35,722 nt of DNA, from positions 1 through 35,722 of the forward strand of contig JABANN010000358.1 in the NCBI GenBank assembly GCA_013115125.1, read 5' to 3'. Shown here in pieces: positions 6,054 through 35,722 of the stretch. Both the position numbers and the translations under genes were made by a program. The number at the start of each line of letters is the position of its first letter. The first letter of the stretch is position 1. This DNA is from Perkinsus olseni. Its lineage: Eukaryota. The notes under the pieces were generated by a model, which saw only the letters and a program-made list of their open reading frames with translations, was not told the origin of the DNA and searched no databases.

Positions 6054-6439
6054 GGCAAGATTGACAAGTGCCCATCCAAGTTTGACAGCGCGTCAATAGA
6101 AGCGGCTTTCGAAAAGCCCAGGCGCAAAGGCTTTACTCAGCCCGAGGAACCAGCTCATCTACTCACTCCGTTTGACCCACTAATTGCGTATTTAATTTGG
6201 ACCCCTAACGGTAGCTGTCGAGCATCTCTGTTCACCCCCGAGTCCGTCTGGCGATACACTCTCCTCATTTTATCGTAAGAGACTAGTTGGTCTCTTGACG
6301 AATGCTTCACGCACAGTCTGGCACTGTAGTCGTGGGGCATTGTGGTTGTCGAATGAACCACCTACGTACTGCCGATTATATGCTGCTGTATCTTCATCGA
6401 CCCGCTGTCAAACTTGGACGGGCACTTGCCAATCTTGCC
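6054..6439. mobile_element. MITE-like non-autonomous element with terminal inverted repeats
   Basis: 6054-6090 GGCAAGATTGACAAGTGCCCATCCAAGTTTGACAGCG is the reverse complement of 6403-6439 at 35/37 positions, and the match extends imperfectly ~12 nt inward. No coding content; no clear TSD. Confidence 0.7.
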
Positions 6440-16832: not shown

Positions 16833-17600
16833 GACCGAAGGTGTGATGTATTCCCCATGTTACGACGCTGGTGTTCGGCAGCGCTGGTAGGGTTGTGTCG
16901 AGTACGATGTTTAAGAGACTTCAAAGTGCCAAACAGACGGACGGTTCGACCGTTATTCATTCGGCCACGGGTAGAGAAAGAATCGACTATTCAGAAGCTT
17001 CTAGAAAAAACCTGTTGGGACACAGGAAGTGCAGTCTGTAACGAGGGAAAAAGACAACGTGAAAACGTACGTCCGACGTTCCTTTCCATGGGGGATCAGT
17101 TCAGCCTGTTGAACAGGCTCGCTTCATCAAGCCAAGAAACGTTGATATCAGAACGAGGTCATCTTCATCAGCTGGGGCGCTTCCTTCCCACCCGGCAGAG
17201 TCCGCTTCCACAGGGGGCTGTGCACGACTACGAAACACTAGCGCCTCTCGCAGTGTGTCCATCACAAGCATCATCTCCGAAAAGTCCACCGGTCTCGCGC
17301 CACGTGGCCTCATTTTCGAACGTTGCACTCCTCTTTCGTTACGGACTTTATATGCTGTTGTCCGAATCACTCCCAGAGACAAAAGACTTGTGCAGGCGTG
17401 GTGCCCCAGTGCATAACAGGGAGTATCCACAGGAGTAAATGAAGTGGAGATAATAGTCAGACAGTTACAGACGAGGGTGGTTGAATCTTATGCTAATGGC
17501 AACTTACGTAATGGTCGTGGGTTTCTGCATGTTGAGCAACCCGACTCAAACCAAACCCGATAGTGGTCATAAAAACAGCAAAAAACAGCGATCGTGAAGT

Positions 17601-20600
17601 CTACGAAGAACTCTCTTTCTGACCGTCATTCGGCGGCGCTTCTTCGTTCGGTGGTGTGATGCAGATCGATGCCGTCTCCTCGAGGACTCCCTCGTTCTGA
17701 GCTACTTTCGGTGGGCCGGCAGGCCTCGCGTCGGCGTCCACTTCCGCATGCTTCAGGACCACCAAGGCATGGCGATACCTGTACCTCACTGAAAGCTCGT
17801 CGTCAACGAAAGCAACCTACAGCGACTCGATTCTCTCTCCCTCCAGTCTGAACGTCTCAACATCAATCTTGGACTTCAATGGTTGAACAAAATCGATGGC
17901 CGCTTGCCGACACGCCGACAGCCGCCGTGAATCCTCAAACAGTTGTGATCGTATCTGTAGCATGAAAATCATCCTGAAGGCCACAGCCCTTTCGCCTGAC
18001 CTGCTCAATTTGGTCCATCGTGGCTTCGTTCGTCCGGGCCGTGTACGTGTTCAATACGTTGGAGTCGCCATCAGCAGAATCCACTCCCGTGATGGCGGCG
18101 GCGGATGTAAACCTGATACCATCTCAAGCTGAACTTCCTCTACATCGCATGATGTGGCCATGTGCCTGCCTGGCCTTTACCCGGCGAGCATCGCAGCACT
18201 GCCGTTCTGAAGGGCCTCCTTCTGTTGCGCCAACTTCTTCACGTTACTCGACACGCTGTTCATGCGGTCCTCGATGAACCGCAGATGCTCACGACAAGTA
18301 CCGATGTATCTGCTTCTGGTATGACCTTCCTTCTCACAAGCAACCAACCTACGCTTGATTGATTTGTGACAGCTTCTTCTTCAACTCTACGCCAGCCTTG
18401 TCATCGGTCTGAGCCACGGCCTCCTTCGAGCTGCCAGCCATCGTGGCCACCTTTCCACCAACTTCAAGGACTGGGCAGCTGCGGGAACGGCTCACCTCGT
18501 CAAAACGGTCGTGCAGGCGGTTGAACTTCGTCTCTGCGGCTTCGGCTGCCTTAATCGACTGGTTGTAGGACTCCTTCGTGTCGGCCAGACTCTGAATGGC
18601 AATGAGAACTCCGCCGCAAAATGATGAAGTAGCCTTCTAAATCAGAATCTTCGGATATCCAAAGTTCACTGCGTCTACTCAAGATATCAGTATCTTTCCC
18701 ACCACCCAAGTAATATGAAGACTTCTCCGACGACCTTACTGCAAGCGCGTGCCGGACGGAGTGATAATAACAACCCCCAACTGATGTCACCTTCCTAACA
18801 CTCTCTTCGCGTTGCATGCACAGCACCTGCTGCCGCTGGGCCTCCACGAGGTCTTCTGATACCTTCTCCAGCTGCAGCCGCAGCGACTGCTTCTTCGCCT
18901 ATCCTCAGCGCACTGAGGCCGACCCGCCTCGTCCTGTGGTCACCTCCAGGGCCGCTATCCGGGCATCAACTTCCTTCCTGTCCGCCATCATCGCCTTCAT
19001 CTGCTCGTCCACGCGCTTCTCTTGGGACGCCAAACCCGCAGCATCGCGACTCTGACCAGACCCGTGGCCCACACCCAACCCACCCGCGGACTCACCTGGG
19101 CATCCTGCTGGGTGGTCACCATCGAAGACGCTCTTTGCGACGAGGCTGTGGACGACTGGACCTGCATCGGAAAGGCCTCCCACACGGTCCTTAGAGAAAA
19201 GGTTCCCACCATCCGATCACATTTACTCGCAACTTTCTTCTCATGCTCTGCCCGACTGTCGATAGAAGTCTTAGCGTGATCGTTAAGTCGCCCCCACAGG
19301 CGGACCAGACCTTCAGATTGGGCCAGGCGCGCGTCAAACCACCTGATGGCGGATCATGCCCATCCCCCACCGTACGCGACCTGATCGTTACCTGTCCCAG
19401 TCGCCATCCTCAGGTCGCTTGTTCGCCGCCACCATCAGCTCCTGTCGACGGCAGTCCGCTTCTATCTGTCAGAGATTCCGCTACCGGGGATCGAACCCGG
19501 GTCATTTATCTCACCCCGTTGCGCTTCATCTCACAAATCAGCCACTCTGTATTCCAGTCCTTCTTCAGACAGTCGGACAGTATACTCAGGGACCTGCGCA
19601 AACCCATGGAGAGGAAACCAGAGGAGGTTAGCCGGGTTCTCACCATGCGCAACCATCTCCCCCATCCCGAGCTTTCTCGAAAGATTCAACACCCGGAGTC
19701 CGACAAGACGGCGGTGCTGCATCATTGTTGTCGAAGTAAAGGTACTCGGGATTAGTCGACAGAAGATGGGCCACCACCGGCTCCCAGACAGCCGGGCTGC
19801 CGTTCAGCAGACCTGAGGGTGACGCAATGACACCTAGGCTGTTTCCGAAGACCGACGTTCGGGAGCTGAGAAGATTTCGCGTGTGCAATACCAAATTTCA
19901 CACTACTCGCAATCATATTCCTCGATAGAAACTTTCCTTTTCCTTCCCGAAAAAAAAGTCAAGCCTCAAACAGACGGCTAAGCGACCACTACTAGAAACT
20001 TTCGAGAATAAGATATTCGGGTGATGACAGATCGGGAGCTCCGCACACCTACGAGTAAGAAGTTCATGCAGCAGCACTGCCGCCTCGCGTTCCATCTCTT
20101 CCGCCGCTTCCACCAAGGTCCTCTCCTTGGCCACTGACGGGCCATCATCGTCAACTGTAGGGGAGGAGGATCCTGATGAGAACGACGCATGATCGAACGC
20201 CGTGCGCTGTGAGGGGTCACCTGACGATTTCCCACTCGACCGGCTTGAGGCTGTCTGCGGCGGCCAGTTCTTGCCTAAAATACCCAACCATGGGCGAGGA
20301 CTCGTCCACCTCTCAGGACTCACTCAGCCCCACTGCAATCGTAGTGTGGATCCGCGGTCCTGAGGCGACCCTCACGGCCGAGCATAGCGTCTCTTCAAGA
20401 GCCCGTGACCGCAATAAAACCTGGAAGCAGAAATTCGAAACGGAGGCAGCTGCGGTGGGAAAGATCCCACCTGAGTGAAGTTGAGTTGCTTGGGCCGTCC
20501 GAAAGCCTCATCGCTTGGGACGCTCTCAGTGTACATCGGCGCAAGCGACCGAGCGACCTCTTGGTCAGGGATGAGATGATTCACACTTTCTTCAGCCTTT

Positions 20601-20961
20601 CTTGGACGGAGCGATGCAGAACAGCAGAGGGAGCAGCTCTCCTCCCACCTCATTAATAGCCGCCAGCCACTCCCTATACAGCGCCACCAAGGCCTGTACG
20701 TTCCGGACTTGTGCCGCCCTCATCTCCAATGCCTCCTAAAGGGACACAACTGATGCCAGGCTTCGACCGGGGAACCTTACGATGGCAGCCTCGACGGTCG
20801 ATGCACTGCGGCCCCCTACGCGAACTTGGGAGACCTGATAGGCCCTATGACGACGAAGAAGAAGAAGACGGTCAGCTGCTGCTGCTGCTGCTCACCCTGT
20901 GCCGAAGGGTTGTGCTCTTCTCCTTCACGCTTTCGAACGCTCCTCGAATCCAGCTTGACAT
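17601..20961 (-). CDS. Large multi-exon coiled-coil hypothetical protein
   Basis: ATG at 20961 (MSSWIRGAFESVKEKSTTLRHR|GTGAG). Many short GT-AG-bounded exons with heptad-like content (EKRVDEQMKAMMADRKEVDARIAALE|AKKQSLRLQLEKVSEDLVEAQRQQ). Last exon ends ...GQKESSS* at 17601. Could be more than one gene. Confidence 0.55.
19476..19507 (-). other. tRNA 3'-half-like fragment (T arm plus 3' acceptor strand, tRNA-Glu/Asp-like) inside a 49-nt intron
   Basis: Minus strand AAATGACCCGGGTTCGATCCCCGGTAGCGGAA: perfect CCGGG/CCCGG T stem with a TTCGATC loop (B box). No 5' half nearby. Confidence 0.55.
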
Positions 20962-21592
20962 AAATTATGAGAAAAAATAATCAACTGCTACCACTCGAAC
21001 TCCCTTAGGGAAGTTACTCAGTAAAGGGGAAGAACCAATCCGCTGGGCTGTGCCCCTGATCTCGCCTGGCAAGCCACTAGGATTCCGGTCATCGCGGTCG
21101 ACGAGAATGGTAGAGTTGCCGAGCCTTGAGATGTTCTTTCAACCATCAATGAGGGTACGCATGAGGAGTTTCAATAATAGCAAGGGGTGTACGGTCGCGT
21201 ACTGAATGATATCCTGAGGTTTATATTCATACCACACCTTCCCGAAGTTATCGTGCTGCTAGCCCCCCCCCAAGCATTGACAGCTCTTGTGTCGTCAAAC
21301 TTCGGAAGCTAGCGGTTAGGTCTCTTAGCAAAGTCGAATGATCATCTCCATCGCAGGAGAGATATTTCGCCCAGTGCCATGGTCAAGATAAGATACGCAT
21401 GATGACGATATTTGGTATCAACTTTCAACATCCCCGAGAGAAGGAGCCCCGCGCGTCGAGCTGTCCCAATTTTGTGTCAAAAATCAGCCGTCTCTGTGGC
21501 CAAGCCAAACAGCCAATCTCAAGTGATGGTAGAAACTCGAAAATTAATTTCAATAATGAATACTACAGCAAAGAAACTACACACAGTCGCTA

Positions 21593-23707
21593 TCAATCCG
21601 CTGTGAGCAGTCGTTGTGTCAAGTGTCCCGTAACGCTAGTGGCCATCTGGCGGCCGTAGGGGATGTATGTGAGAGCATACCACAGTATGGCAAGGAGCTG
21701 GACGATGACAGCGATGAGGATCAGCACTCGACGGTGAGGAGAACGGATACAGGTGTACAGGGTGGAGAACATCGCCAGGAGGTATCTAAGGTTGAACAAT
21801 GAAAGATACGAAACAGCCACAGATCAAAACCGGCGATACGCATGTCGGTGGTTCAACTGATGATGCGTGGTAGGCTATGAATGCTATCAATCGATTAGAG
21901 ACGCTGCACTGTTGAGCGCCTGAATTCCGTCATTGCCCATGGTCGACCTAAGATACCATTGAGCTTAACCTCATCCTCAACGCACTCGCTGGGATTCGGC
22001 ACGTGATGGCAAAGAAGGATTACCACCATATTCATAAGGACGAAGTTTTCGACCAATTGCTGTCGGATAAGTTGCAATCAAGATTTCGGCAGGTGTGAGA
22101 ATCAGATTGATCACAGTTGAGGCGCCACCAAGAGGCATTATCGTAACGGTTAAGAAGTACGGTCATCCCTAAAGTCCTTCCCTCCCCGCTCACATAGCCG
22201 CAGCCATCGCCCTATTATCTTTGAACATGTTTTTGAATTGCCGTACAGGGCCAACCAAAAACATAGTCGACAACAACTGCAGTACGTTACCGATGGTGTA
22301 TCTGAGACAGAAGAGAATACACCAATTCCGAATCGGTCGAATAATTCCTGGCACCGCCGACAATTCGACAAGTCTCAGATCAGAGGAAATCTATTCTGGT
22401 CGAGCACTAAAAGCTTATCCCAGAGTTCCTTATTCTCCACCACCAGAGGCGAGGGTACTGTGCGCTACCCCCATGCTCGGTGATATGACCAAAACTGTGC
22501 GATCGTGAAATCGATAATCAACTGCGCGACAGAAATATTCTCTCACGGCTTTTCCGAAGGCAGTACTGATAATAATAATACTTTTCGTGCCTACATCCCG
22601 AGCCATTGCGAGGTACCATGACGAGTGAAACGCGACAGTTCTATTCTCAGAGTTGCCAGAAGCTCTCATCGAGAGAAGCATGATTCAACCTAAGATACCA
22701 ACCAGAGGAAAGAGTGCTGTATTATGATAAGAAAATTGAGGAGGAGAGAAACCATCTCCAAGACCTCTACTTCGAGTGTTGTCAGGTTGAACATGATCTC
22801 TGCGGGTTGTTGCTACAGCGACCTTCCACGTCAGTTTTTCGTTTACAACTTTTACTTCTAGTTTCACGCGTTCGACTCTCGATTCACAACGCGTAATGTT
22901 TCTCCTAACGCCTGAAACACCCTCGTTCAACACAACACGAGCGCAGCTCCGTTAAGCCAGCCCAAAGGGCAGCAGGGTGGGCATCAAACTTATGCCATCA
23001 ATCGGCTTGCGAACTCTTCAAGGTTACTAACCTCATCCCTAATGAGGATAGCTTTTTCCGGGCTCTTTCGAATTATTTTCTCTAATTTTCGAATATTTTC
23101 GCAGCCAAATTCGGTTATTTTCAACACTCACAGTGTAGTTTCGTCCACTGCACGGATGGCGATAATTAAAAACATTTTCCCTTCTAATTTTCCACTTTTG
23201 CAAAATGGAAACCACATTTTCAGTGTTTTCCACTTACGGTCTAAAACGTGAATTTACTGACCCCCCGTTTAATAAAGTAGTTCAGTAACCCAGAATCAAT
23301 TTTTAGACGTAAAAGGCGGTTCCCGAGACGATTCTGAATCTCAGAATTGGCTTATTAAACGACCCAGGAGTCTTGAGATCTCACAACTCAGATGCAAGTC
23401 TTCGCGCTTTGCGATGACACCTGCCCAAGTACTACGCTAAAGCGAAGCGTGTTGGTCGTCCCAGTAGTAGTAGAGTGAACGATCCGAACGATCCGATGCT
23501 GATGAGGACCCCGGCTGTGAAGCAGCAAGCCCACCCAAAAACCTGGAGGGAGCGGAGGAATCTTAGGTTGAAGGTTGCACGTTATATTACCCGCTGTTTG
23601 ATAGTCAGGCTCGGGAAGAGGCTGTCATCATGATCCGACAGACCGAGTGACTGTGCCCACTGGCTGGCGAAGGGAGATCCACCGGAAGGGGGAGAAGGAG
23701 GGGACAT
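21593..23707 (-). CDS. SFT2: Vesicle transport protein SFT2 (Got1/Sft2 family); 4 exons
   Basis: Exons 23707-23591, 23542-23436, 22301-22194 and 21785-21593 splice to ...PSLTIKQR|VFGWACCFTAGVLISIGSFGSFTLLLLGRPTRFALA|YTIGNVLQLLSTMFLVGPVRQFKNMFKDNR...|...LWYALTYIPYGR. Confidence 0.92.
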
Positions 23708-27000: not shown

Positions 27001-28355
27001 GAAAAGCCGCAGTCGAACCCTGACGGAGCGAAACGCCGAGTTGAAAGAACAAGTATCGCGGCTGCTCCGATAGGGTGATGAGGAATGGATGGTGGTCAGA
27101 TAGCGACGCTACTGGAGAAGAGCGATGGTGATGATAAGTTGATCGCGGAGATGAGGGGCTATCTGGACCGCAAGATCGAGCGTGCTGATCTCCCTTCCTT
27201 TCCGGCAGAGGGTGACGCTGACGGCCGAACAGTGTGAGTGGGGCGATGCAGGCGGTGCAGGTCGGGTAGGGAAAGTTCAGCGGGCTTGTTTATCATATTG
27301 TAGCTCGACAGACGGTACCGATAGTGAGTCTGAGGATGTTCGAAGCATCGTTCCTCGATCTTGGGGGAGTCTTGTTGTTCCTCCACCGTTATCATCTGCA
27401 GTGGCGGTTATTGGGAGACTGCCAGCTTCTACTGGGTGACTCCGTCACACAAGAAGGAAGACAGCCAGGGGTGACGGGAGACACCTTGTGACCACTAGTT
27501 TTTTTTGTAGTAGCGCTTGTGTCCTGCAGCAACGTAGATCTCGTAGTTGTTTCCCTCTAGCACGAGTCCAAGTAGATGAGCTGGGCCTAGCGTGGATGAC
27601 AGAGTCCTAGGGGGTAGCGTAGAGGTCGATAGACGAGATCTCACGAGTAGTAACAATTGGCCTGGGCTTCTAGCTCTCAGCTATGGTACAGAGAAGGCAC
27701 ATACGTACGGACGTCGGCTTGGTGATCATTGCTTCACTGAGGTCTGGACCCTTCGAACGGAGTAAATTTGGCCGCAGAATTGAAGTGTGTTTAGCACCCA
27801 TCCTGCTGGACAGGGCCAACCCTTCTCTCGCATTATCTCCACTCCGCCGTCGCTCGTGAAATTAACAATGATTGGCTGGAAGTTGATATTTACGTTGAAC
27901 AGAATAGGTGCTATCCTGAGCTGGAACGGCTAAGGTCGGAGAACGAGACGCTGAAGGAACAGTGCCGAACACAGAAGACAATAATTGAAACGGTAGGGTG
28001 CAGATCATCCTAGGGTTCTGTCGGTCGACATGGGATGACCCTTCTCTCGTTGTAGTGCGTAACTTTCATGACGTTTCACGCTGAGTTTAACACGTGATGA
28101 TATGTTGTCAAGCAACGCGCGATCGAATGCTACCTGCGGGGGCCTAGGGAAATTGTTTGCAGGGAGAAAAGTCGTGCAGAGGTGACAAAGAGGCGTGGAT
28201 TTCGAAATGACTGAATATTTGTGATTAACACTAGCCGAGTGCATGATGCACTCATGATCCAACTTGATGGCCGAGTAGCCGTGTCTTAACGATACTTTCC
28301 GCAGCTGAGCACCAAGCGACGGCAGAAGAAGAAATGTGATCTGGAGGGAGGATGA
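24027..28355 (+). CDS. CCDC13: CCDC13-like coiled-coil (cilium/centriolar satellite-associated) protein, multi-exon
   Basis: RLMEMVKKNRSLT, LLAEIGD...GYEGRAKTIARLKREVRALRMQL and SRSRTLTERNAELKEQ|IATLLEKSDGDDKLIAEM resemble CCDC13 blocks as I recall them (WRGRAQQI..., LVEKGRHDDELI). Likely last exon LSTKRRQKKKCDLEGG*. 5' exons uncertain. Confidence 0.65.
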
Positions 28356-28567
28356 CACCCATGGCGCTTCGACCTCGTCGTTTCTTTCATTTCCTGCTTT
28401 GCGTTGCATAACATGGACCGTCGCTCGTCTCAACCGTACCCGCGCCATTGAGGTGCTGGTGAACAGCATTGGCCGCGAGCTTAAAAGCGAAAATTCATAG
28501 GCGGTTCTTTTATCGGCGATGAGCCGCGAGTTCCGGAGGCACCGATTCGGGAACGGTAAATTTAGAA

Positions 28568-28640: not shown

Positions 28641-30433
28641 TCTGTCTGAGTTTAGTTAGACCTACGCCCTCGACCAACTACTCTTATTAAAGGACGTAAT
28701 TCTATCTCTGTAAGGGCCCCTGCTTTGGCAATTCTCCCTCGTTGAAGTCTATCGTTTTCTCGCGTGAGATTCTCACAGTGAGCTACGTTGAAGCATCACC
28801 GATCTTCCCGCTAGGGTTTTCATTAATCACTGCCTCCATGCATCGGGTACTACCAGCCACTCAAATGCCCGAGGTCTACGAAAGAAGGATCTTCCCTTTC
28901 GCTCCGTCCCCAACACCTTCGGCGCGGATTCTTAGTGGCCACTCAAGCGGTGAGGGCGTGTCGCTGTTCGACTTGACCAGTCGTCGGAGGCCTACAAGGT
29001 GCAGCCGCCCTCAGGTCGGAACAGCCGCAGGCGGTCAACTTCTGAGCCTCGATCCGCTCGAAGAGGGAGGGTTTCCATGGCCAGAATAGAGGCTGATCGA
29101 ATCATCGAGAAGCCCCAAATGACCATCGGAGGTCGCGAGGCGGTTGGTTGTCGCATCTTGCACGACGGGAGAGTCCCTATTTCAGGTTGGGAGGCGACCA
29201 TCCCCGGCCCAGCAGGACAGGGCACCCTCGGCAGCAGAGCTCAAGGATACCCAGAACACCACTACGGGGAAGGGAACGAGTAGCCATTCACCTTCATGGG
29301 CTTGCCTGTAGCGGTGTTCAGGACCTAAACTTTAGGTTCGGTCATTGGTCAACAGCGAATGATGTGCATCCTCTGATAGCGTATGGGCAGCTAGGCAGAT
29401 GGAGCCTCTCTAACAGAGAGTATGGAGGACATTATTATCATCCCGAGCAAGAGTGAGTATCTTAGGTTTAACCTGGCTCCTCGTAACAGTGCACCCTGCA
29501 GGTATAAAGTGGCACAAAATCCCCGAATGCCGAACCTTGTGGTGAGTCGAAGTCAGCTGGACAGGTTTCGGACCGATACCAATCTCATGTTTGACTGATG
29601 ATACTGTACCAGCCGCTCGTTGTGTCCCTCAAAGAGGTGTTCAGTTGAGTGGCAAACAGCAATAGTGAGGGCAATGGAGATTCGCCTGAAGAGCGTCTCT
29701 CAGTGGGAGCCCTAAGGATTCATGCGGGACCAGTTGATAACCGTTGCAAACCTAGGCTCGATCGCTGCTCTCCGCCCAAAACTCAACTCGCACTGTCCTG
29801 CCGATCGAACCTGAGCCGGGCATCCGGTTGCCATCCACAAGCTGGTAATTGGCACGTTCTGTTTAGGGTATCAAACAAGGTGCTCCACACGGTTCCGCAG
29901 AGGCACCGACTGGAAACCCTCTTCTCGACACAGAGTTTACGTTATTCAAGTTGAATGATCCAAGTTATGTTGCTTGATTCAACATCTATATCACCGGTTC
30001 GCATGTACTATTTGAACTGTACTTGCTCGTCGGAAATTTTCGTGCAGCCAAATGCTACCATTCGAACACTGACCTTCTAAAGGTCACCTTCACCTCAAGA
30101 GTACAAAACACTCTGAACTCGCTAAACAGTGTCCTTCGCGTGTTTGAAGCATCGCACCCTCCGTAGGATTTGCTGTCAGACAGTCTACGAGTTTTCATCC
30201 GTTGCTGGATGGTTCTTTCTTGCGGAGCAGCAATATATGACGAACAAGGCAGCGCGCAGCCAGGACCGAACTCTTGAACTATCCTATTAGTTCCGAGCAG
30301 TCACTAAAACTATCCCCACTTCAAACGCAGTAACTGCTGAGATGACACACTGCGTTGAACATGCAGTAAACTTATCGAACAACGACATCGGTGGGGATCC
30401 AACGCTAGCGGAATCAGCACCATGGTAGAAAAG

Positions 30434-31204
30434 CTATTGGGTATCCAGCCTTGGCCTCTTCAAAGGCGGTTCCTCGTCTTGTTCAGCGGATGGGCCCCTC
30501 TCTATGTGAGACAGTTGATCGGCCGTCTGCTGCACAATTTCTCTGAAACCATTTTCTGCGTATCTAAGCGCGATACTTGTCGAACCGAGCTGAAGGTGCC
30601 AGGAATTGACGTAACTAAGGACGATGCTATTGGCGTGTAACCCTGCAAGATTGAACACCCTCGCAGCGGCTGCGACCGAGGCTTGAAGTGTACCGGCATC
30701 CAACGATGTATCCAATTGCCAGAAGCCCTTAGTGTCCAGACCGGGTACCTTTTGTTCTACGCTACGGTACACCAGCGGGAGGGGTGGAAGCGAGAGGCTA
30801 GCAACGTACAAGGGCAATATCCCACCAGGTTTTGTGTACTTCATGTAAGGGACGTTGTGAGTGGGCACTATCGGTTCTATCGAGAGATGATGGAGATCTA
30901 GCTGTGCTCGCGCTTCGTCCAGGCTGGTCCTCGTGATGTTTAAGAACACGCCGTCGACTTTGCCAACCGCACCAGCACTTACCATGAGACCGGGCACCGG
31001 TAGGAGGAAGCGGTTCAGTACGAGAGGGATACGTGAAGCACCCTGCCGTGGTTCATTCGCCGAGGCCACGACGGGTGAAGTGGGACTCGATGGCGCCGAG
31101 TACTCGAGCTCAACCGGCAGTACGAGCTCAACTGAACTGCGCCTCACCACCACCACCCCCACCCCCACCTTCCTTCCCAAGAAGAGGACCCAACTCGCAT
31201 TCAT
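30434..31204 (-). CDS. Hypothetical 256-aa protein divergent from gag, possibly an accessory gene of the retroelement
   Basis: Long uninterrupted ORF with no recognised domain. Ends in an NLS-like PPLKRPRL. Confidence 0.55.
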   Translation of the reverse strand: MNASWVLFLGRKVGVGVVVVRRSSVELVLPVELEYSAPSSPTSPVVASANEPRQGASRIPLVLNRFLLPVPGLMVSAGAVGKVDGVFLNITRTSLDEARAQLDLHHLSIEPIVPTHNVPYMKYTKPGGILPLYVASLSLPPLPLVYRSVEQKVPGLDTKGFWQLDTSLDAGTLQASVAAAARVFNLAGLHANSIVLSYVNSWHLQLGSTSIALRYAENGFREIVQQTADQLSHIERGPSAEQDEEPPLKRPRLDTQ

Positions 31205-31542
31205 TCGACATATGGCGATTCTAGTTCTCGCGAAGATAACTTGTTATCGTATGTTAAATACGGGGACGCGAGCGGCGCTTCAGTGCGTGGCTGACGGGGA
31301 CATGTCACACACTCCGCGTGCGCAACCGTGGGTCGGCGTTTCGCGCACGCGTGCAAGATGCGCATGCGAGATCCACCATGGAGCTGTCAAGGTACCCTTA
31401 TGACATGTGCATAGGTCATTTCTCGTAAACGTTACGAGTCGTAAGGTCACCGAACCTAGGTGAGTAGCATTCCGCTAACGTCTTCAGTCCAAGACGTGTT
31501 AGTTTTGCTGCAGCTTTGGTCTGTCTCCAGTACCCACGTTAA

Positions 31543-32703
31543 ATGTCCACCAGTGACGGTGATCGCAGCGAAGCGGCGAGCCTAGCCGACAGCATGGCCG
31601 AGGGCCCCGCTGAGTTCGAGGTCAACGGTATCCGTCCGCCTGACGAAGCCGCTGCCAACAACGCGGCCCCTTCCGAAGCTGGTACTCCTCCCGAGGCTCA
31701 GGCTCAGCCTGCTCTCCCGGCCGAGGCCCTGGACTTCATCAACGCGTCCATGTCCAAGGAGGCCGCCGCCGACGTCGTCGCTGTCCTGAAGAGGCGCGGT
31801 GTAACCACGCCCGCTATGCTCGAGTCGCTGGACCCCGATAACTGCACTATCTTAGCCGATGACCTAGCTGACAAGGCTAATCGTCTGGGTCTGCGTGCCG
31901 TCGGTCGTTTCTACGAGGAGAAGGCGGCCAAAAGGCGCCGCACGGTTGCTTCCACCAAGGAGAGAGATTTCGAGACCCTCCTCAGACGACTTCAGGATGA
32001 GTGTGCCGGCAAGTATGACGGGTTTCGTGTACCAGGCCGTTTCCTTCTGCCTCCTAACTTATTCTTCCGCCTCCAGAAAGGAGAAGAGGTTCACTTGGAC
32101 CAGTTGCTGGTGAGCTCTGCCGCGGCCGGCGACACCAGCCACAAGTTCACCTTCGATACGGAGGCTCAGACTTTTAAGGTCGAGGACGTCAGTGGCAAGT
32201 CCAAACCCCCGGTATGCCAGAGTGCCGGTCTCATGCTGTCCATGGCCAGATGGGGTTTGTCAGCCTCGTTATTGAACCAGCTCCAACCCATCCATGCCTT
32301 GTGCTACATGGCGAGGGTGGCGGAAGCGTGTCTCAACTGTGCCGGCGGCATCTCGGTGATGAAGGCCATAGACATCGACATGCGCTCCGAGGCACGTCGC
32401 GGTTCGAGCACGAGTCCCCTGGGGGTGCAACTGACCCAAGAGTTTGGCGACATTGTGGCTCGTCACTCTGCTGCCGGTCAAGTGGCAGCTTGTCTGTCTA
32501 CCAGCAGTCGGACTCACTCGTCTGACAAGAACGGATACTCGGGTTCTGGTCGTGGCCACAACCAAGACCGGCTCTGTCACTACTTCCCGCTTGGGAAGTG
32601 CCATGCTGGTAACAGATGCAAGTTTAAGCACGTCACGCCCGAGCAGCCAGCGGGGAGGAAAGTTAATGGCCCGAAAGACTCTCACCAGAGATCGGGTAAT
32701 TGA
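31543..32703 (+). CDS. gag: Gag-like ORF1 with C-terminal CCCH zinc finger
   Basis: 386-aa ORF. CHYFPLGKCHAGNRCKFKH = C-x7-C-x5-C-x3-H. Basic KAAKRRR motif. Lies directly upstream of the RT ORF. Confidence 0.8.
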   Translation: MSTSDGDRSEAASLADSMAEGPAEFEVNGIRPPDEAAANNAAPSEAGTPPEAQAQPALPAEALDFINASMSKEAAADVVAVLKRRGVTTPAMLESLDPDNCTILADDLADKANRLGLRAVGRFYEEKAAKRRRTVASTKERDFETLLRRLQDECAGKYDGFRVPGRFLLPPNLFFRLQKGEEVHLDQLLVSSAAAGDTSHKFTFDTEAQTFKVEDVSGKSKPPVCQSAGLMLSMARWGLSASLLNQLQPIHALCYMARVAEACLNCAGGISVMKAIDIDMRSEARRGSSTSPLGVQLTQEFGDIVARHSAAGQVAACLSTSSRTHSSDKNGYSGSGRGHNQDRLCHYFPLGKCHAGNRCKFKHVTPEQPAGRKVNGPKDSHQRSGN

Positions 32704-32825
32704 TATTACACGGCATATGCGCCTACGGCTCTTCGTTCTCTTTCGTCTCTCGTCTTCTGAGCTCCAATGTGAATGAGTTCGTTGATTTGGCGATGATTGT
32801 CCGTTGACACGGGTAGTCGAGTAGT

Positions 32826-35138
32826 GTGGTTCCTAGTCCAATCCGACAACACGCTATTGTTGAGTTTATAGATACGGGGGCAAGCGCGAGCCAATCTGCG
32901 ACGGACAAGCGGTCGGGGGCCACGAAGAGGAGGCGCACGACAGACGAACCTACCCACCGCGACCTGGCAAACGATGAAGAGGCACACCAGCTCGTGCAGG
33001 TAGTGGAATCCTGGTGTGACCAAGCTCGGCGAGCCGTCCAAGAAGATCTCTTCAACGATGAGAACTACAAGGACGGAGGTTTCAGTACGCTACCGGACCA
33101 AGAACTCCCAGCGGGGGTCTCGGAGAAAGCCCTCCAAGTGGGGTCTGAGATTGGCGAGATCATTCTCGAGGAGGCTAGGGGCAAGGGCCTCACGGACGTT
33201 CTCCGTTCCCTGCAGGGCGCCCCTTCGGAAGAGCAAGCGGCGACGCTGAAACGGAAAGCCGACAGCGTCGCTGAGAAGTGCAGGGGCAGAATAGCCCACC
33301 TACTACAAGCGCCCAACTCGCCGCCAAGCAATGGTAACCACATCCACTGTGACATCCTGCAGGCACTGGCTGTAGCTCTCGGGGACCAAGACGTTCAGTT
33401 TGCGAGCCTCTGCAAGGACGGGCTGCCCATTGGTATCACTGAAGAGATCCCTCCTTGCTCGTTATACCCGGCGTACCATCCCAAGCCCCAGCAGGTGTAT
33501 GAGAAACCGGGAGAACACCGGAACTACAAATCCATGAACGACTCCGAGGCCAGGGACTGCGTGGAGAAAACCCTGGAAGAAGAGCAACGGTGCGGCTTCA
33601 TCCGGCGTCTATCAGAAGAAGAGGCCAATGATCCCGGGAGGACCTTCACGCCACGGGCAGCTTTGCCGAAGGGCGAGAAGGCCTCCGATGGGTATAGGAT
33701 TATAGATGATTTTCTCAGATCAAACACGAATCTGGCGGCCGCAGTGCCAAACACTAACACCTTGCCGGGTGTTCGGGACCTAAGAAGGCTGGCCGGCTCC
33801 CTGTTGGATCGTTTCCCGGGCTCGGAGGTGGCCCCCTTCAAGCTAGATCTGAAATCAGCGTACAGGCAGCTAGGCGTGCGGCCGTCCGAACGTAAGCACC
33901 TCTGCTTCATGCATGAGTTCGGGGATGGCACCAAAGCATGGTTCGAGAACCTCTCACTCCCATTCGGACTGAATTCGTCCGGATATTGGTTTGTGAGGTT
34001 TGCCTCTCTGGCACAAAGGTGCATAACAGTTGTGCTAAAAGGGATCATGAAGCACCGGGGCATCCTCCCCGCCATAGGGGGCCTACAATACGTCGATGAC
34101 GGCTTCTGGCTCCTGTTGAAGAGCTTCTACTACGAGGCAGCGACAATAATCATCATGATGTGGCACTTGATCGGGGCCCCGGTAAGCTTCCCCAAAGTAA
34201 GGATGGGGGCGAATACGGTGGACTGCATAGGAGTCACGGTGGAGGTCACAAGTACAGCCAGGATGTCCTTCTCCATAAGAGAGGCGAAAGTCTCGAAGCT
34301 CAGGGCTATGCTGGCAGACCTGCTTAGGTCCGAGAGGGTCTCCCTTCGAGATTTACGCTCCATCACTGGGAAGTTGACACACTACACACAGCTACAGATC
34401 TTCTTGCGGGCCTACACTCAACCCTTTCACGCTCTAGAGGCGGCCATGACCCGGAAAAAGCTTATCGTGGCGAAGTGCCCAAGGAGTAGCGAGATCGGCT
34501 GCATTGCGGGATTCTTCCACCGACTCCTGGGAGAAGCCCGCTCCCTAGTTCCTGTGGGGCCCCTGGGATTCAGGACTTGTACCAGGGCTTCGACCGTCAC
34601 CATCATGGCCGACGCTTCCACCCGCGCCGTTGGGGGGGTCCTTGCCCGGTGCGCGGGCGAACCGTCGGACTACGCGGTGGAGGCAACGCCAAAGCCAGAC
34701 GTGGTCAAGTACTTCCAGTTGGAACTATCAGCATCTACGCTGGGTGAATGGACATGCCTGCTTAAAGATCCGACCATCCCGGAGGAGAGCAGGAACATCA
34801 CAGCTTTCGAGCTCGTGGCTGTTTGTTTGTCCCTGATCACGCTCGAGCGGGAGTTCGGACAGTTGGGATCTTTCAACGTGGTTATCTACACCGACAATGA
34901 GGCCGTACGCCACATCCTTTCCCGTCTCTACTCCAGGACGCCGGCTCTGGCGAAGCTACTGCGGTGCATGGCCGGGGTGCTGGCAAAAATGTCGACCACA
35001 GCTTTCGTGACTCAGAGGATCTCTACGGAGGAGAACACTGCCGCAGACATGCTCTCGCGGGTTCGGACGCCGAAGCTACCGGATACGTGGGAGAAGGTCG
35101 ATGTCAACTTGGCCCTCATAGAAGGGGAGTTGACGTAG
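32826..35138 (+). CDS. pol: Reverse transcriptase / RNase H (pol) of DIRS-order element; true start likely supplied by splicing
   Basis: RT motifs YRIIDD, KLDLKSAYRQL, LPFGLNSS and QYVDDG. RNase H motifs IMADAS, ITAFELVAV, IYTDNEAV and ENTAADMLSR. No frameshifts or internal stops. Confidence 0.95.
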   Translation: MVPSPIRQHAIVEFIDTGASASQSATDKRSGATKRRRTTDEPTHRDLANDEEAHQLVQVVESWCDQARRAVQEDLFNDENYKDGGFSTLPDQELPAGVSEKALQVGSEIGEIILEEARGKGLTDVLRSLQGAPSEEQAATLKRKADSVAEKCRGRIAHLLQAPNSPPSNGNHIHCDILQALAVALGDQDVQFASLCKDGLPIGITEEIPPCSLYPAYHPKPQQVYEKPGEHRNYKSMNDSEARDCVEKTLEEEQRCGFIRRLSEEEANDPGRTFTPRAALPKGEKASDGYRIIDDFLRSNTNLAAAVPNTNTLPGVRDLRRLAGSLLDRFPGSEVAPFKLDLKSAYRQLGVRPSERKHLCFMHEFGDGTKAWFENLSLPFGLNSSGYWFVRFASLAQRCITVVLKGIMKHRGILPAIGGLQYVDDGFWLLLKSFYYEAATIIIMMWHLIGAPVSFPKVRMGANTVDCIGVTVEVTSTARMSFSIREAKVSKLRAMLADLLRSERVSLRDLRSITGKLTHYTQLQIFLRAYTQPFHALEAAMTRKKLIVAKCPRSSEIGCIAGFFHRLLGEARSLVPVGPLGFRTCTRASTVTIMADASTRAVGGVLARCAGEPSDYAVEATPKPDVVKYFQLELSASTLGEWTCLLKDPTIPEESRNITAFELVAVCLSLITLEREFGQLGSFNVVIYTDNEAVRHILSRLYSRTPALAKLLRCMAGVLAKMSTTAFVTQRISTEENTAADMLSRVRTPKLPDTWEKVDVNLALIEGELT

Positions 35139-35347
35139 CTGCACCCGTAGCCGGGGCAGTCAGAGCGGCGCTGTGGCGGGTCTCAAGTGTGACAGAAGCT
35201 CTTCTCCCGTTTCTTGCTGGAGCATGCTGTCGTGTTATCGTAACCAGTTGGGGAGCAGGTCGGATTCACAGACTCGGCCTCACCTCCTCACACTCGGGAG
35301 ACGGGGCGGTGCCTGTAGGTTCCTAGTTATTTCTATCCATCATACAG

Positions 35348-35722
35348 ATGGCCGCACGCCGCCGGAAAGCGAGCATGTTCGTCCGCGAGGCCCAGGCACA
35401 AGGACGAAGCCTCGAGGCGGAGGTAAATGAGTTCGTGGGGAGCGCCCTGGCCAGCTCCACAAGAAAGGGTTACACAGCGGCTGAGAACCTATTCGTCAAG
35501 ATCATCTTCGGAGAAGGGGCCGTCGGCGGCGAGATCTATCCACTGTCCGGGAACCTGCTCCTACTATACATATATGTAATGTCCAAAGTGGGCTACGCGG
35601 CTTCAACGATCCGGACCTACGTGGCGGGCTTGAAAACCCGAAACATCGAGAACGGTCACAGGCTGAGTCGTCTAGCGTGCGAGAGGGCCCGGCGGGCGGT
35701 GAGAGCTGCAGAGAGACACTGC
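35348..35722 (+). CDS. Tyrosine recombinase N-terminal (core-binding) region, 3'-truncated
   Basis: Frame is open from ATG 35348 to the window end: ...SALASSTRKGYTAAENLF...LLLYIYVMSKVGYAASTIRTYVAGLK... This is typical of the YR N-domain of DIRS-order elements, and the ORF follows RNase H. Catalytic RHRY residues lie outside the window. Confidence 0.8.
   Translation, partial: MAARRRKASMFVREAQAQGRSLEAEVNEFVGSALASSTRKGYTAAENLFVKIIFGEGAVGGEIYPLSGNLLLLYIYVMSKVGYAASTIRTYVAGLKTRNIENGHRLSRLACERARRAVRAAERHC

Follow-up and report, generated by a model that had tools for sequence, protein, structure and literature searches.

Perkinsus olseni is a parasite of clams. We analyzed 35,722 nt of its genome (NCBI GenBank assembly GCA_013115125.1, contig JABANN010000358.1, positions 1 to 35,722 of the forward strand), hereafter called the window, which ends within a retroelement encoding Gag, reverse transcriptase/RNase H (pol) and a probable tyrosine recombinase. 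The gag and pol open reading frames (ORFs) of this element are separated by stop codons, and our results support a 176-nt GT..AG intron at 32696-32871 as the best conventional route to Pol. The intron and its product of 1139 amino acids (aa) are not new, because both are already contained in a public gene model. What is new here is that the assembled RNA of the element is unspliced and ends inside the candidate intron. Our preferred reading, to which we give about an even chance, has a gag-only mRNA that terminates within the intron and longer, rarer transcripts that must be spliced to encode Gag-Pol.

Gag-pol layout and the candidate intron

The gag ORF (31543-32703, plus strand) encodes 386 aa and ends in TCG GGT AAT TGA, with the TGA at 32701-32703. 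The pol frame lies in a different frame, -1 relative to gag, and is open over 773 codons from 32817 to its TAG stop at 35136-35138. Between the two ORFs is a spacer of 113 nt, and stops occur in every frame at this junction. Those in the gag frame begin at 32701, 32758, 32770 and 32794, those in the third frame at 32774 and 32783, and those in the pol frame at 32697 (TAA), 32805 (TGA) and 32814 (TAG). The last two (32805-32816, plus strand) close the frame between an ATG at 32793 and the long ORF. Because all three frames contain stops, a single frameshift or read-through cannot link gag and pol. The first in-frame ATG of pol is at 33534, as given in the preliminary description of this DNA, although it is codon 240 counted from 32817 rather than codon 237. 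The preceding 239 codons are free of ATG, and they are kept at 36-39% protein identity in other Perkinsus families.

A GT dinucleotide at 32696-32697 lies inside the last gag codons, and an AG at 32870-32871 lies within TTTATAG|AT. Joining 32695 to 32872 takes out 176 nt with GT..AG borders in phase 1 (cgg|GTAATT...TTTATAG|ata, plus strand) and fuses gag to the RT/RNase H frame at 32872-35138 (plus strand), giving a 1139-aa Gag-Pol that reads ...HQRS-D-TGAS... at the junction. The preliminary description had proposed exactly this in-frame fusion. Its positions for the stops at 32805 and 32814, the donor at 32696 and the acceptor at 32871 all agreed with the sequence.

The same structure is found in the GenBank model for this contig, P0009 (KAF4661328.1, FOL46_005776; 1139 aa), which uses exactly the 176-nt intron and is annotated solely as 'C3H1-type domain-containing protein'. 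Its junction is ...KDSHQRSDTGASASQ..., containing HQRS-D-TGAS. A tblastn search aligned P0009 with the window in two blocks of 100% identity, residues 1-384 to 31543-32694 and residues 385-1139 to 32871-35135. The pol frame was also 100% identical to another P. olseni protein, P0001.

Read without splicing, the pol frame at 32850-32885 gives AIVEFIDTGAS, which resembles a retropepsin active site, and the D codon of FIDTGAS is the codon split by the proposed splice. We rejected the retropepsin reading: the following sequence is hydrophilic and of low complexity, and it matched no protease family.

The strength of the two sites was assessed with a weight matrix derived from 15 introns of the window that RNA had confirmed, a small training set. 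These introns were all GT..AG (15/15) and are located on the minus strand at 17775-23589. The minus-strand genes at 17080-23589 to which they belong are rich in very short introns, each supported by RNA contigs from three runs, and are well suited to training a local splice-site model; lengths of 68, 199, 408 and 1134 nt also occur among them. The donor at 32696 scored 5.4 bits and ranked 4th among the 100 GT dinucleotides in 31543-33100, with a leave-one-out range of 0.0-8.8 for the true donors. The acceptor at 32871 scored 6.4 bits and ranked 4th among 112 AG dinucleotides, the corresponding range of true acceptors being -2.3 to 10.1. By this small matrix, the quality of the candidate sites is better than chance. 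The candidate intron has a lower G+C content (46%) than gag (60%) and pol (58%), and its AG|ata context is shared by 5 of the 15 confirmed introns. Canonical GT/AG borders are described for Perkinsus introns in the relevant passages of PMC3101222. The candidate has these borders, as well as a site context like that of the confirmed local introns.

Assembled RNA and the possible routes to Pol

Contigs assembled from four sequencing runs were aligned on the window. Runs X9, X10 and X12 are RNA, because the 15 joints listed, out of 41, occur in all three of them and are absent from run X7, which is DNA of another strain. Two RNA contigs cover gag with 0 mismatches: X10 record 6 over 31230-32847 and X9 record 23 over 31396-32841. 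Both end within the candidate intron, 24-30 nt upstream of its acceptor, with no unlike sequence at that end. X9 record 23 aligned over its full length, and X10 record 6 ends at 32847 with its first letter. The position at which they stop (32841-32847, plus strand) was thus found in contigs of two studies and hints weakly at a 3′ end of gag mRNA. A partial GenBank model, P0024 (FOZ62, 685-nt contig), starts at codon 32847, the same place where the RNA contigs end. The DNA contig X7 record 19 extends as far as 35722; over 4317 nt it shows 41 substitutions and 0 gaps.

In X9, mean word depth was 75.3 for the gag contig vs 4.5 and 3.69 for two contigs over pol (records 24 and 25), contig depth being a poor measure of expression level. 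Five X9 bins elsewhere in the window (27062-28395 and 29063-31063) had zero depth. RNA contigs are missing over 32848-35722 in X10 and X12 and over 35066-35722 in X9, which is not evidence of silence.

Because the RNA contigs end inside the intron, we favor a gag-only mRNA with its own 3′ end. It would be the main product of the element, with a 3′ end formed in the intron. Longer transcripts, which read past this end into pol, would be rarer, and they would lose 32696-32871 by ordinary GT..AG splicing to encode the 1139-aa Gag-Pol. Competition between intronic 3′-end formation and splicing would set the Gag:Pol ratio, and unspliced full-length RNA would be retained for replication. We infer the splicing of 32696-32871 itself from the positions of the stops, an N-terminus of pol that is conserved although it lacks ATG, the quality of the sites and a spacer that seems to recur in related elements. 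In the preliminary description, Gag was attributed to plain intron retention. The RNA contigs, whose ends fall at 32841 and 32847, make a message with a separate 3′ end likelier. The spliceosome may still set the Gag:Pol ratio, as was suggested there.

Evidence on the recurrence of the spacer comes from relatives of the element. In the P. chesapeaki protein P0025, which is 67% identical in gag, and in P0030, the coding sequence leaves 210 nt (1440 nt minus 1230 coding) and 305 nt of the contig, respectively, as a remainder that would be non-coding DNA at the junction. For five partial models confined to gag or to pol, the remainder is only 26-85 nt. This arithmetic takes a model that is partial at both ends to cover its contig completely. 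These numbers suggest that a non-coding junction spacer may be a trait of several families. The wider proposal would be that spliced-only Pol, together with a gag stop and mRNA end inside the intron and a Gag:Pol ratio governed by their competition with splicing rather than by frameshifting, is a layout conserved across several Perkinsus families; we regard it as possible but somewhat doubtful.

By eye, the end of gag in P0025 (KDSNQKA|DT) matches that of the window (KDSHQRS|DT) residue for residue. In a MAFFT alignment, the 'DT' of the two sequences fell in different columns. A 'DT' in the neighborhood of the junction is also seen in P0025, P0026, P0016/P0003 and P0005; in P0002, P0029 and P0030/P0172 it is missing and the alignment is ambiguous. 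We did not count this motif as evidence. We also considered whether the linker of the P. chesapeaki model P0002, which contains two Met, has a counterpart of the ATG at 32793. Its scores against the three spacer frames (34, 30 and 21) could not be told from noise, and the idea was dropped. A search of shorter proteins with the junction region returned two NCBI models and none from RNA assemblies, and a gag search returned two matches. A collection scan with an alignment of four sequences, from which P0003, P0002 and P0025 were left out, gave 378 metagenome and 42 viral contig stretches, none of which was a relative by tblastn.

Several observations weigh against the preferred reading. X10 record 6 and X9 record 23 are unspliced across the donor (32695/32696), and the joint 32695^32872, which the preliminary description would predict, is not among the 15 listed of 41 joints, a number that leaves room for a rare joint; none of these 15 falls within the element. 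No poly(A) is present on the contig ends (32841 and 32847), and they hint at an RNA end only weakly. The candidate intron is also atypical in length, since 12 of the 15 confirmed local introns are 42-50 nt long. Moreover, in-frame, stop-free GT..AG fusions are common: combining donors in 32400-32703 with acceptors in 32780-33100 yields 189 such pairs, so that the phase match alone means little. The exact junction is common to GenBank models from three isolates (P0009, P0015 and P0001), but P0013, which represents the same element in another isolate, splices differently from P0009, and similar junction conflicts occur in other families (P0003 vs P0016, P0030 vs P0172). Because these models are gene-finder predictions that conflict within families, their agreement is weak evidence. 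The comparative evidence on the junction consists of gene models.

Some of these points bear on the possibility that the intron is unused. In that case, this copy would make only Gag, either from a domesticated or surviving gag gene or as a silenced element, the GenBank intron would be a bridge introduced by the gene finder, and Pol would be untranslated. The only RNA seen bridging the donor is unspliced gag RNA, the element is low in copy number, the gene models conflict at the junction, and chance in-frame GT..AG pairs are many. However, the 773-codon pol frame is intact in two haplotypes that differ by about 1%; X7 shows the 41 substitutions and 0 gaps given above, and P0009 differs from P0015 at 10 of 1139 residues. 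The junction spacer seems recurrent in lineages 40-60% diverged (P0025, P0030), and this speaks against recent decay. Locally, few sites score better than the two splice sites. Two short X9 contigs (records 24 and 25), possibly from transcripts, also lie over pol, and five X9 bins elsewhere are empty. On balance, an unused intron seems to us unlikely, if still a serious alternative.

Separate mRNAs for gag and pol are improbable in our view. In such a model, gag would end at about 32845, a spliced leader would be added at the AG 32870-32871, and pol would start at a non-AUG codon or at the ATG 33534. Spliced-leader trans-splicing is used by Perkinsus, according to the pertinent passages of PMC3101222 and PMC9399869. 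As in the processing of polycistrons, a good acceptor follows closely on the ends of the RNA contigs, and the recombinase ORF likewise has CAG directly before its ATG. Nevertheless, both leaders printed in PMC3101222 lack an ATG and would therefore supply no start codon for pol. A start at 33534 would lose the 239 codons conserved as protein. Finally, no leader-bearing contig at 32872 was present among the loose ends listed, which are a part of the total.

Recoding of unspliced RNA, by frameshifting and/or stop read-through, deserves hardly any weight. Frameshifting is presented as the usual solution of retroelements in the portion of PMC3735527 devoted to this question, and pol is indeed in the -1 frame. 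But the stop map would require at least three separate events, and the spacer RNA folded no better than shuffled sequences (z = +0.92). Given the spacer stops and the lack of unusual RNA structure, recoding is an unrealistic route from gag to pol.

The least credible model, also raised in the preliminary description, adds a spliced leader at the AG 32760-32761 and then joins a tiny ATG exon (32773 or 32793) to 32872; the pyrimidine tract plus AG (32729-32761) and both ATGs, each followed by GT, are present, but the RNA contigs of two studies (X10 record 6 and X9 record 23) run uninterrupted from gag across this AG and through 32762 to 32841/32847, and two extra splicing events with micro-exons of about 10-30 nt would be required.

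Precedents for the proposed splicing between gag and pol

The closest precedent is Ogre, a group of legume long terminal repeat (LTR) retrotransposons of the Ty3/gypsy type in which an intron between ORFs is removed by splicing, as stated in the part of PMC3735527 that treats them. In both cases, two ORFs are split by a stop-containing GT..AG spacer, splicing fuses them or would fuse them, and unspliced RNA is, or would be, the template for replication. Unlike Ogre, which is an LTR element with a protease and a DDE integrase, the Perkinsus element probably encodes a tyrosine recombinase. In addition, splicing of Ogre was shown experimentally, whereas that of the Perkinsus element is one that we infer and its assembled RNA ends inside the intron. 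The element may function in the manner of Ogre without belonging to that group, as it is a probable tyrosine-recombinase element with no protease or integrase match.

In copia of Drosophila and BARE1 of barley, splicing gives a Gag-only mRNA, as the account of these elements in PMC3735527 has it. They resemble the Perkinsus element in that a dedicated, more abundant Gag RNA adjusts Gag:Pol at the RNA level and not by frameshifting. The roles of the two RNAs are reversed: the spliced RNA of copia and BARE1 is Gag-only, whereas in Perkinsus the short unspliced RNA would be Gag-only and the spliced one would encode Gag-Pol.

Among cellular genes, a comparable arrangement is the secreted/membrane switch of immunoglobulin mu, in which intronic polyadenylation competes with splicing. 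In that system, as in our reading of the Perkinsus element, the intron contains a stop codon and an RNA 3′ end close to its start; use of the donor skips both, and failure to use it yields the short product. Immunoglobulin mu differs in being a cellular gene; in the Perkinsus element, the poly(A) site and the splice are both putative.

To our knowledge, little is known about the balance of Gag and Pol in elements of the DIRS order. The intron interpretation is plausible overall. If the splice is real, the Ogre-type solution would reach beyond the LTR elements of plants to alveolate elements with a tyrosine recombinase, with the added twist of a gag mRNA that ends inside the intron. The Perkinsus 'C3H1-type domain-containing' proteins of 1100-1450 aa in GenBank are Gag-Pol models of such elements, with predicted junctions. 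It is also apparent that conflicting models of Perkinsus retroelements are annotated as ordinary host proteins.

Identity, boundaries and copy number of the element

The preliminary description had treated the element as one of the DIRS order, which comprises the tyrosine-recombinase retrotransposons. This assignment is supported by relatives of the element and by the matches of the recombinase ORF, and the element is best explained as a low-copy, Ngaro-like member of this order in P. olseni. The pol frame contains a YVDD motif at 34089-34100. The match of this copy to Pfam RVT_1 was weak (E 0.12). Close relatives matched the family at E 1.3e-4 to 1e-3, and more distant ones (P0006, P0007, P0046, P0047 and P0123) were above its cut-off, so a reverse transcriptase, as expected of the DIRS order, is present. 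Some relatives also match RNase H families. Motifs at 34611-34631, 34890-34907 and 35034-35060 are presumably RNase H-like, and the frame stops 26 codons past the last of them. A search of the whole library gave 863 relatives at E<=0.001; ten were looked up, and all ten were Perkinsus gene models.

At the C-terminus of gag is a CCCH zinc finger (32575-32631, plus strand), whose matches to Pfam zf-CCCH (E 0.0012) and Torus (E 6e-06) did not reach the curated cut-offs. In the relatives P0016 and P0005, this domain exceeds or comes close to the Pfam cut-off.

Downstream of pol, an ORF at 35327-35722 (plus strand) encodes the N-terminal part of a probable tyrosine recombinase and is cut by the end of the window, beyond which the catalytic part falls. 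It was 37% identical (E 1e-20) to the segment following RT/RNase H in P0029, and its last 20 residues matched residues 740-759 of P0002 (E 1e-4). The C-terminus of P0002 in turn matched Pfam Phage_integrase at E 2.5e-05 and 24.6 bits, below the cut-off of 27.1. From the pol stop to the start of the open recombinase frame at 35327 there is a gap of 189 nt, a second non-overlapping junction. The first ATG of the recombinase, at 35348, directly follows an acceptor-like CATACAG. The P0002 model passes from RNase H straight to an internal part of the recombinase, and the junctions between pol and recombinase also conflict between models.

No integrase or protease family of Pfam matched pol, and no methyltransferase match was found in it at E<=10. 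The gene order gag, RT/RNase H, tyrosine recombinase without a methyltransferase is that of the Ngaro superfamily of the DIRS order, for which sections of PMC8547959, PMC7192593 and PMC3783388 give the structure A1-[gag, RT/RH, YR]-B1A2B2. The Perkinsus element shares with Ngaro the order of its genes and may share a repeated terminal segment, and searches for a methyltransferase, a protease or a DDE integrase domain in it were negative. It differs in that its gag carries the CCCH finger. The inverted terminal repeats, accompanied by an internal complementary region, and the methyltransferase of DIRS1-like elements were not found, the termini lying partly outside the window. The available passages of PMC3783388, PMC8547959 and PMC7192593 do not mention a natural intron or splicing in Ngaro elements; the intron mentioned in PMC7192593 is an artificial reporter intron, and the mentions in PMC8547959 are unrelated. 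More generally, no natural intron of a tyrosine-recombinase element is mentioned in the portions of the literature that our search returned, which is not proof of its absence from print.

The hint of a terminal repeat comes from contig ends upstream of gag. The X9 and X10 RNA contigs diverge from the window upstream of 31230, and one X9 contig does so downstream of 31425. In X7, DNA contigs are interrupted at 31202 and 31406. Neither of the 30-letter loose ends (31230 and 31425) occurs anywhere in the window, even when 3 mismatches are allowed. These ends suggest that 31230-31425 also occurs in a second context. This 196-nt segment (plus strand) may be a 5′ terminal repeat, the 'A' segment, that recurs at the far end as in A1...B1A2B2, which would put the 5′ boundary of the element at 31230; its 3′ end is outside the window.

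Three observations indicate that the element is low in copy number. Its DNA depth in X7 (33.4) is similar to that of the flanks, there is about one model, whole or fragmented, per isolate assembly, and tblastn of five relatives against the window found this element only and no second copy. No direct repeats were detected within the window. In the X7 DNA, 31606-31706, the low-complexity N-terminus of gag, is replaced by 5 letters. The sole inverted repeat of the window (6054-6097 and 6396-6439; 44 nt, 91% complementary, arms 298 nt apart) lies far from the element and is unrelated to it.

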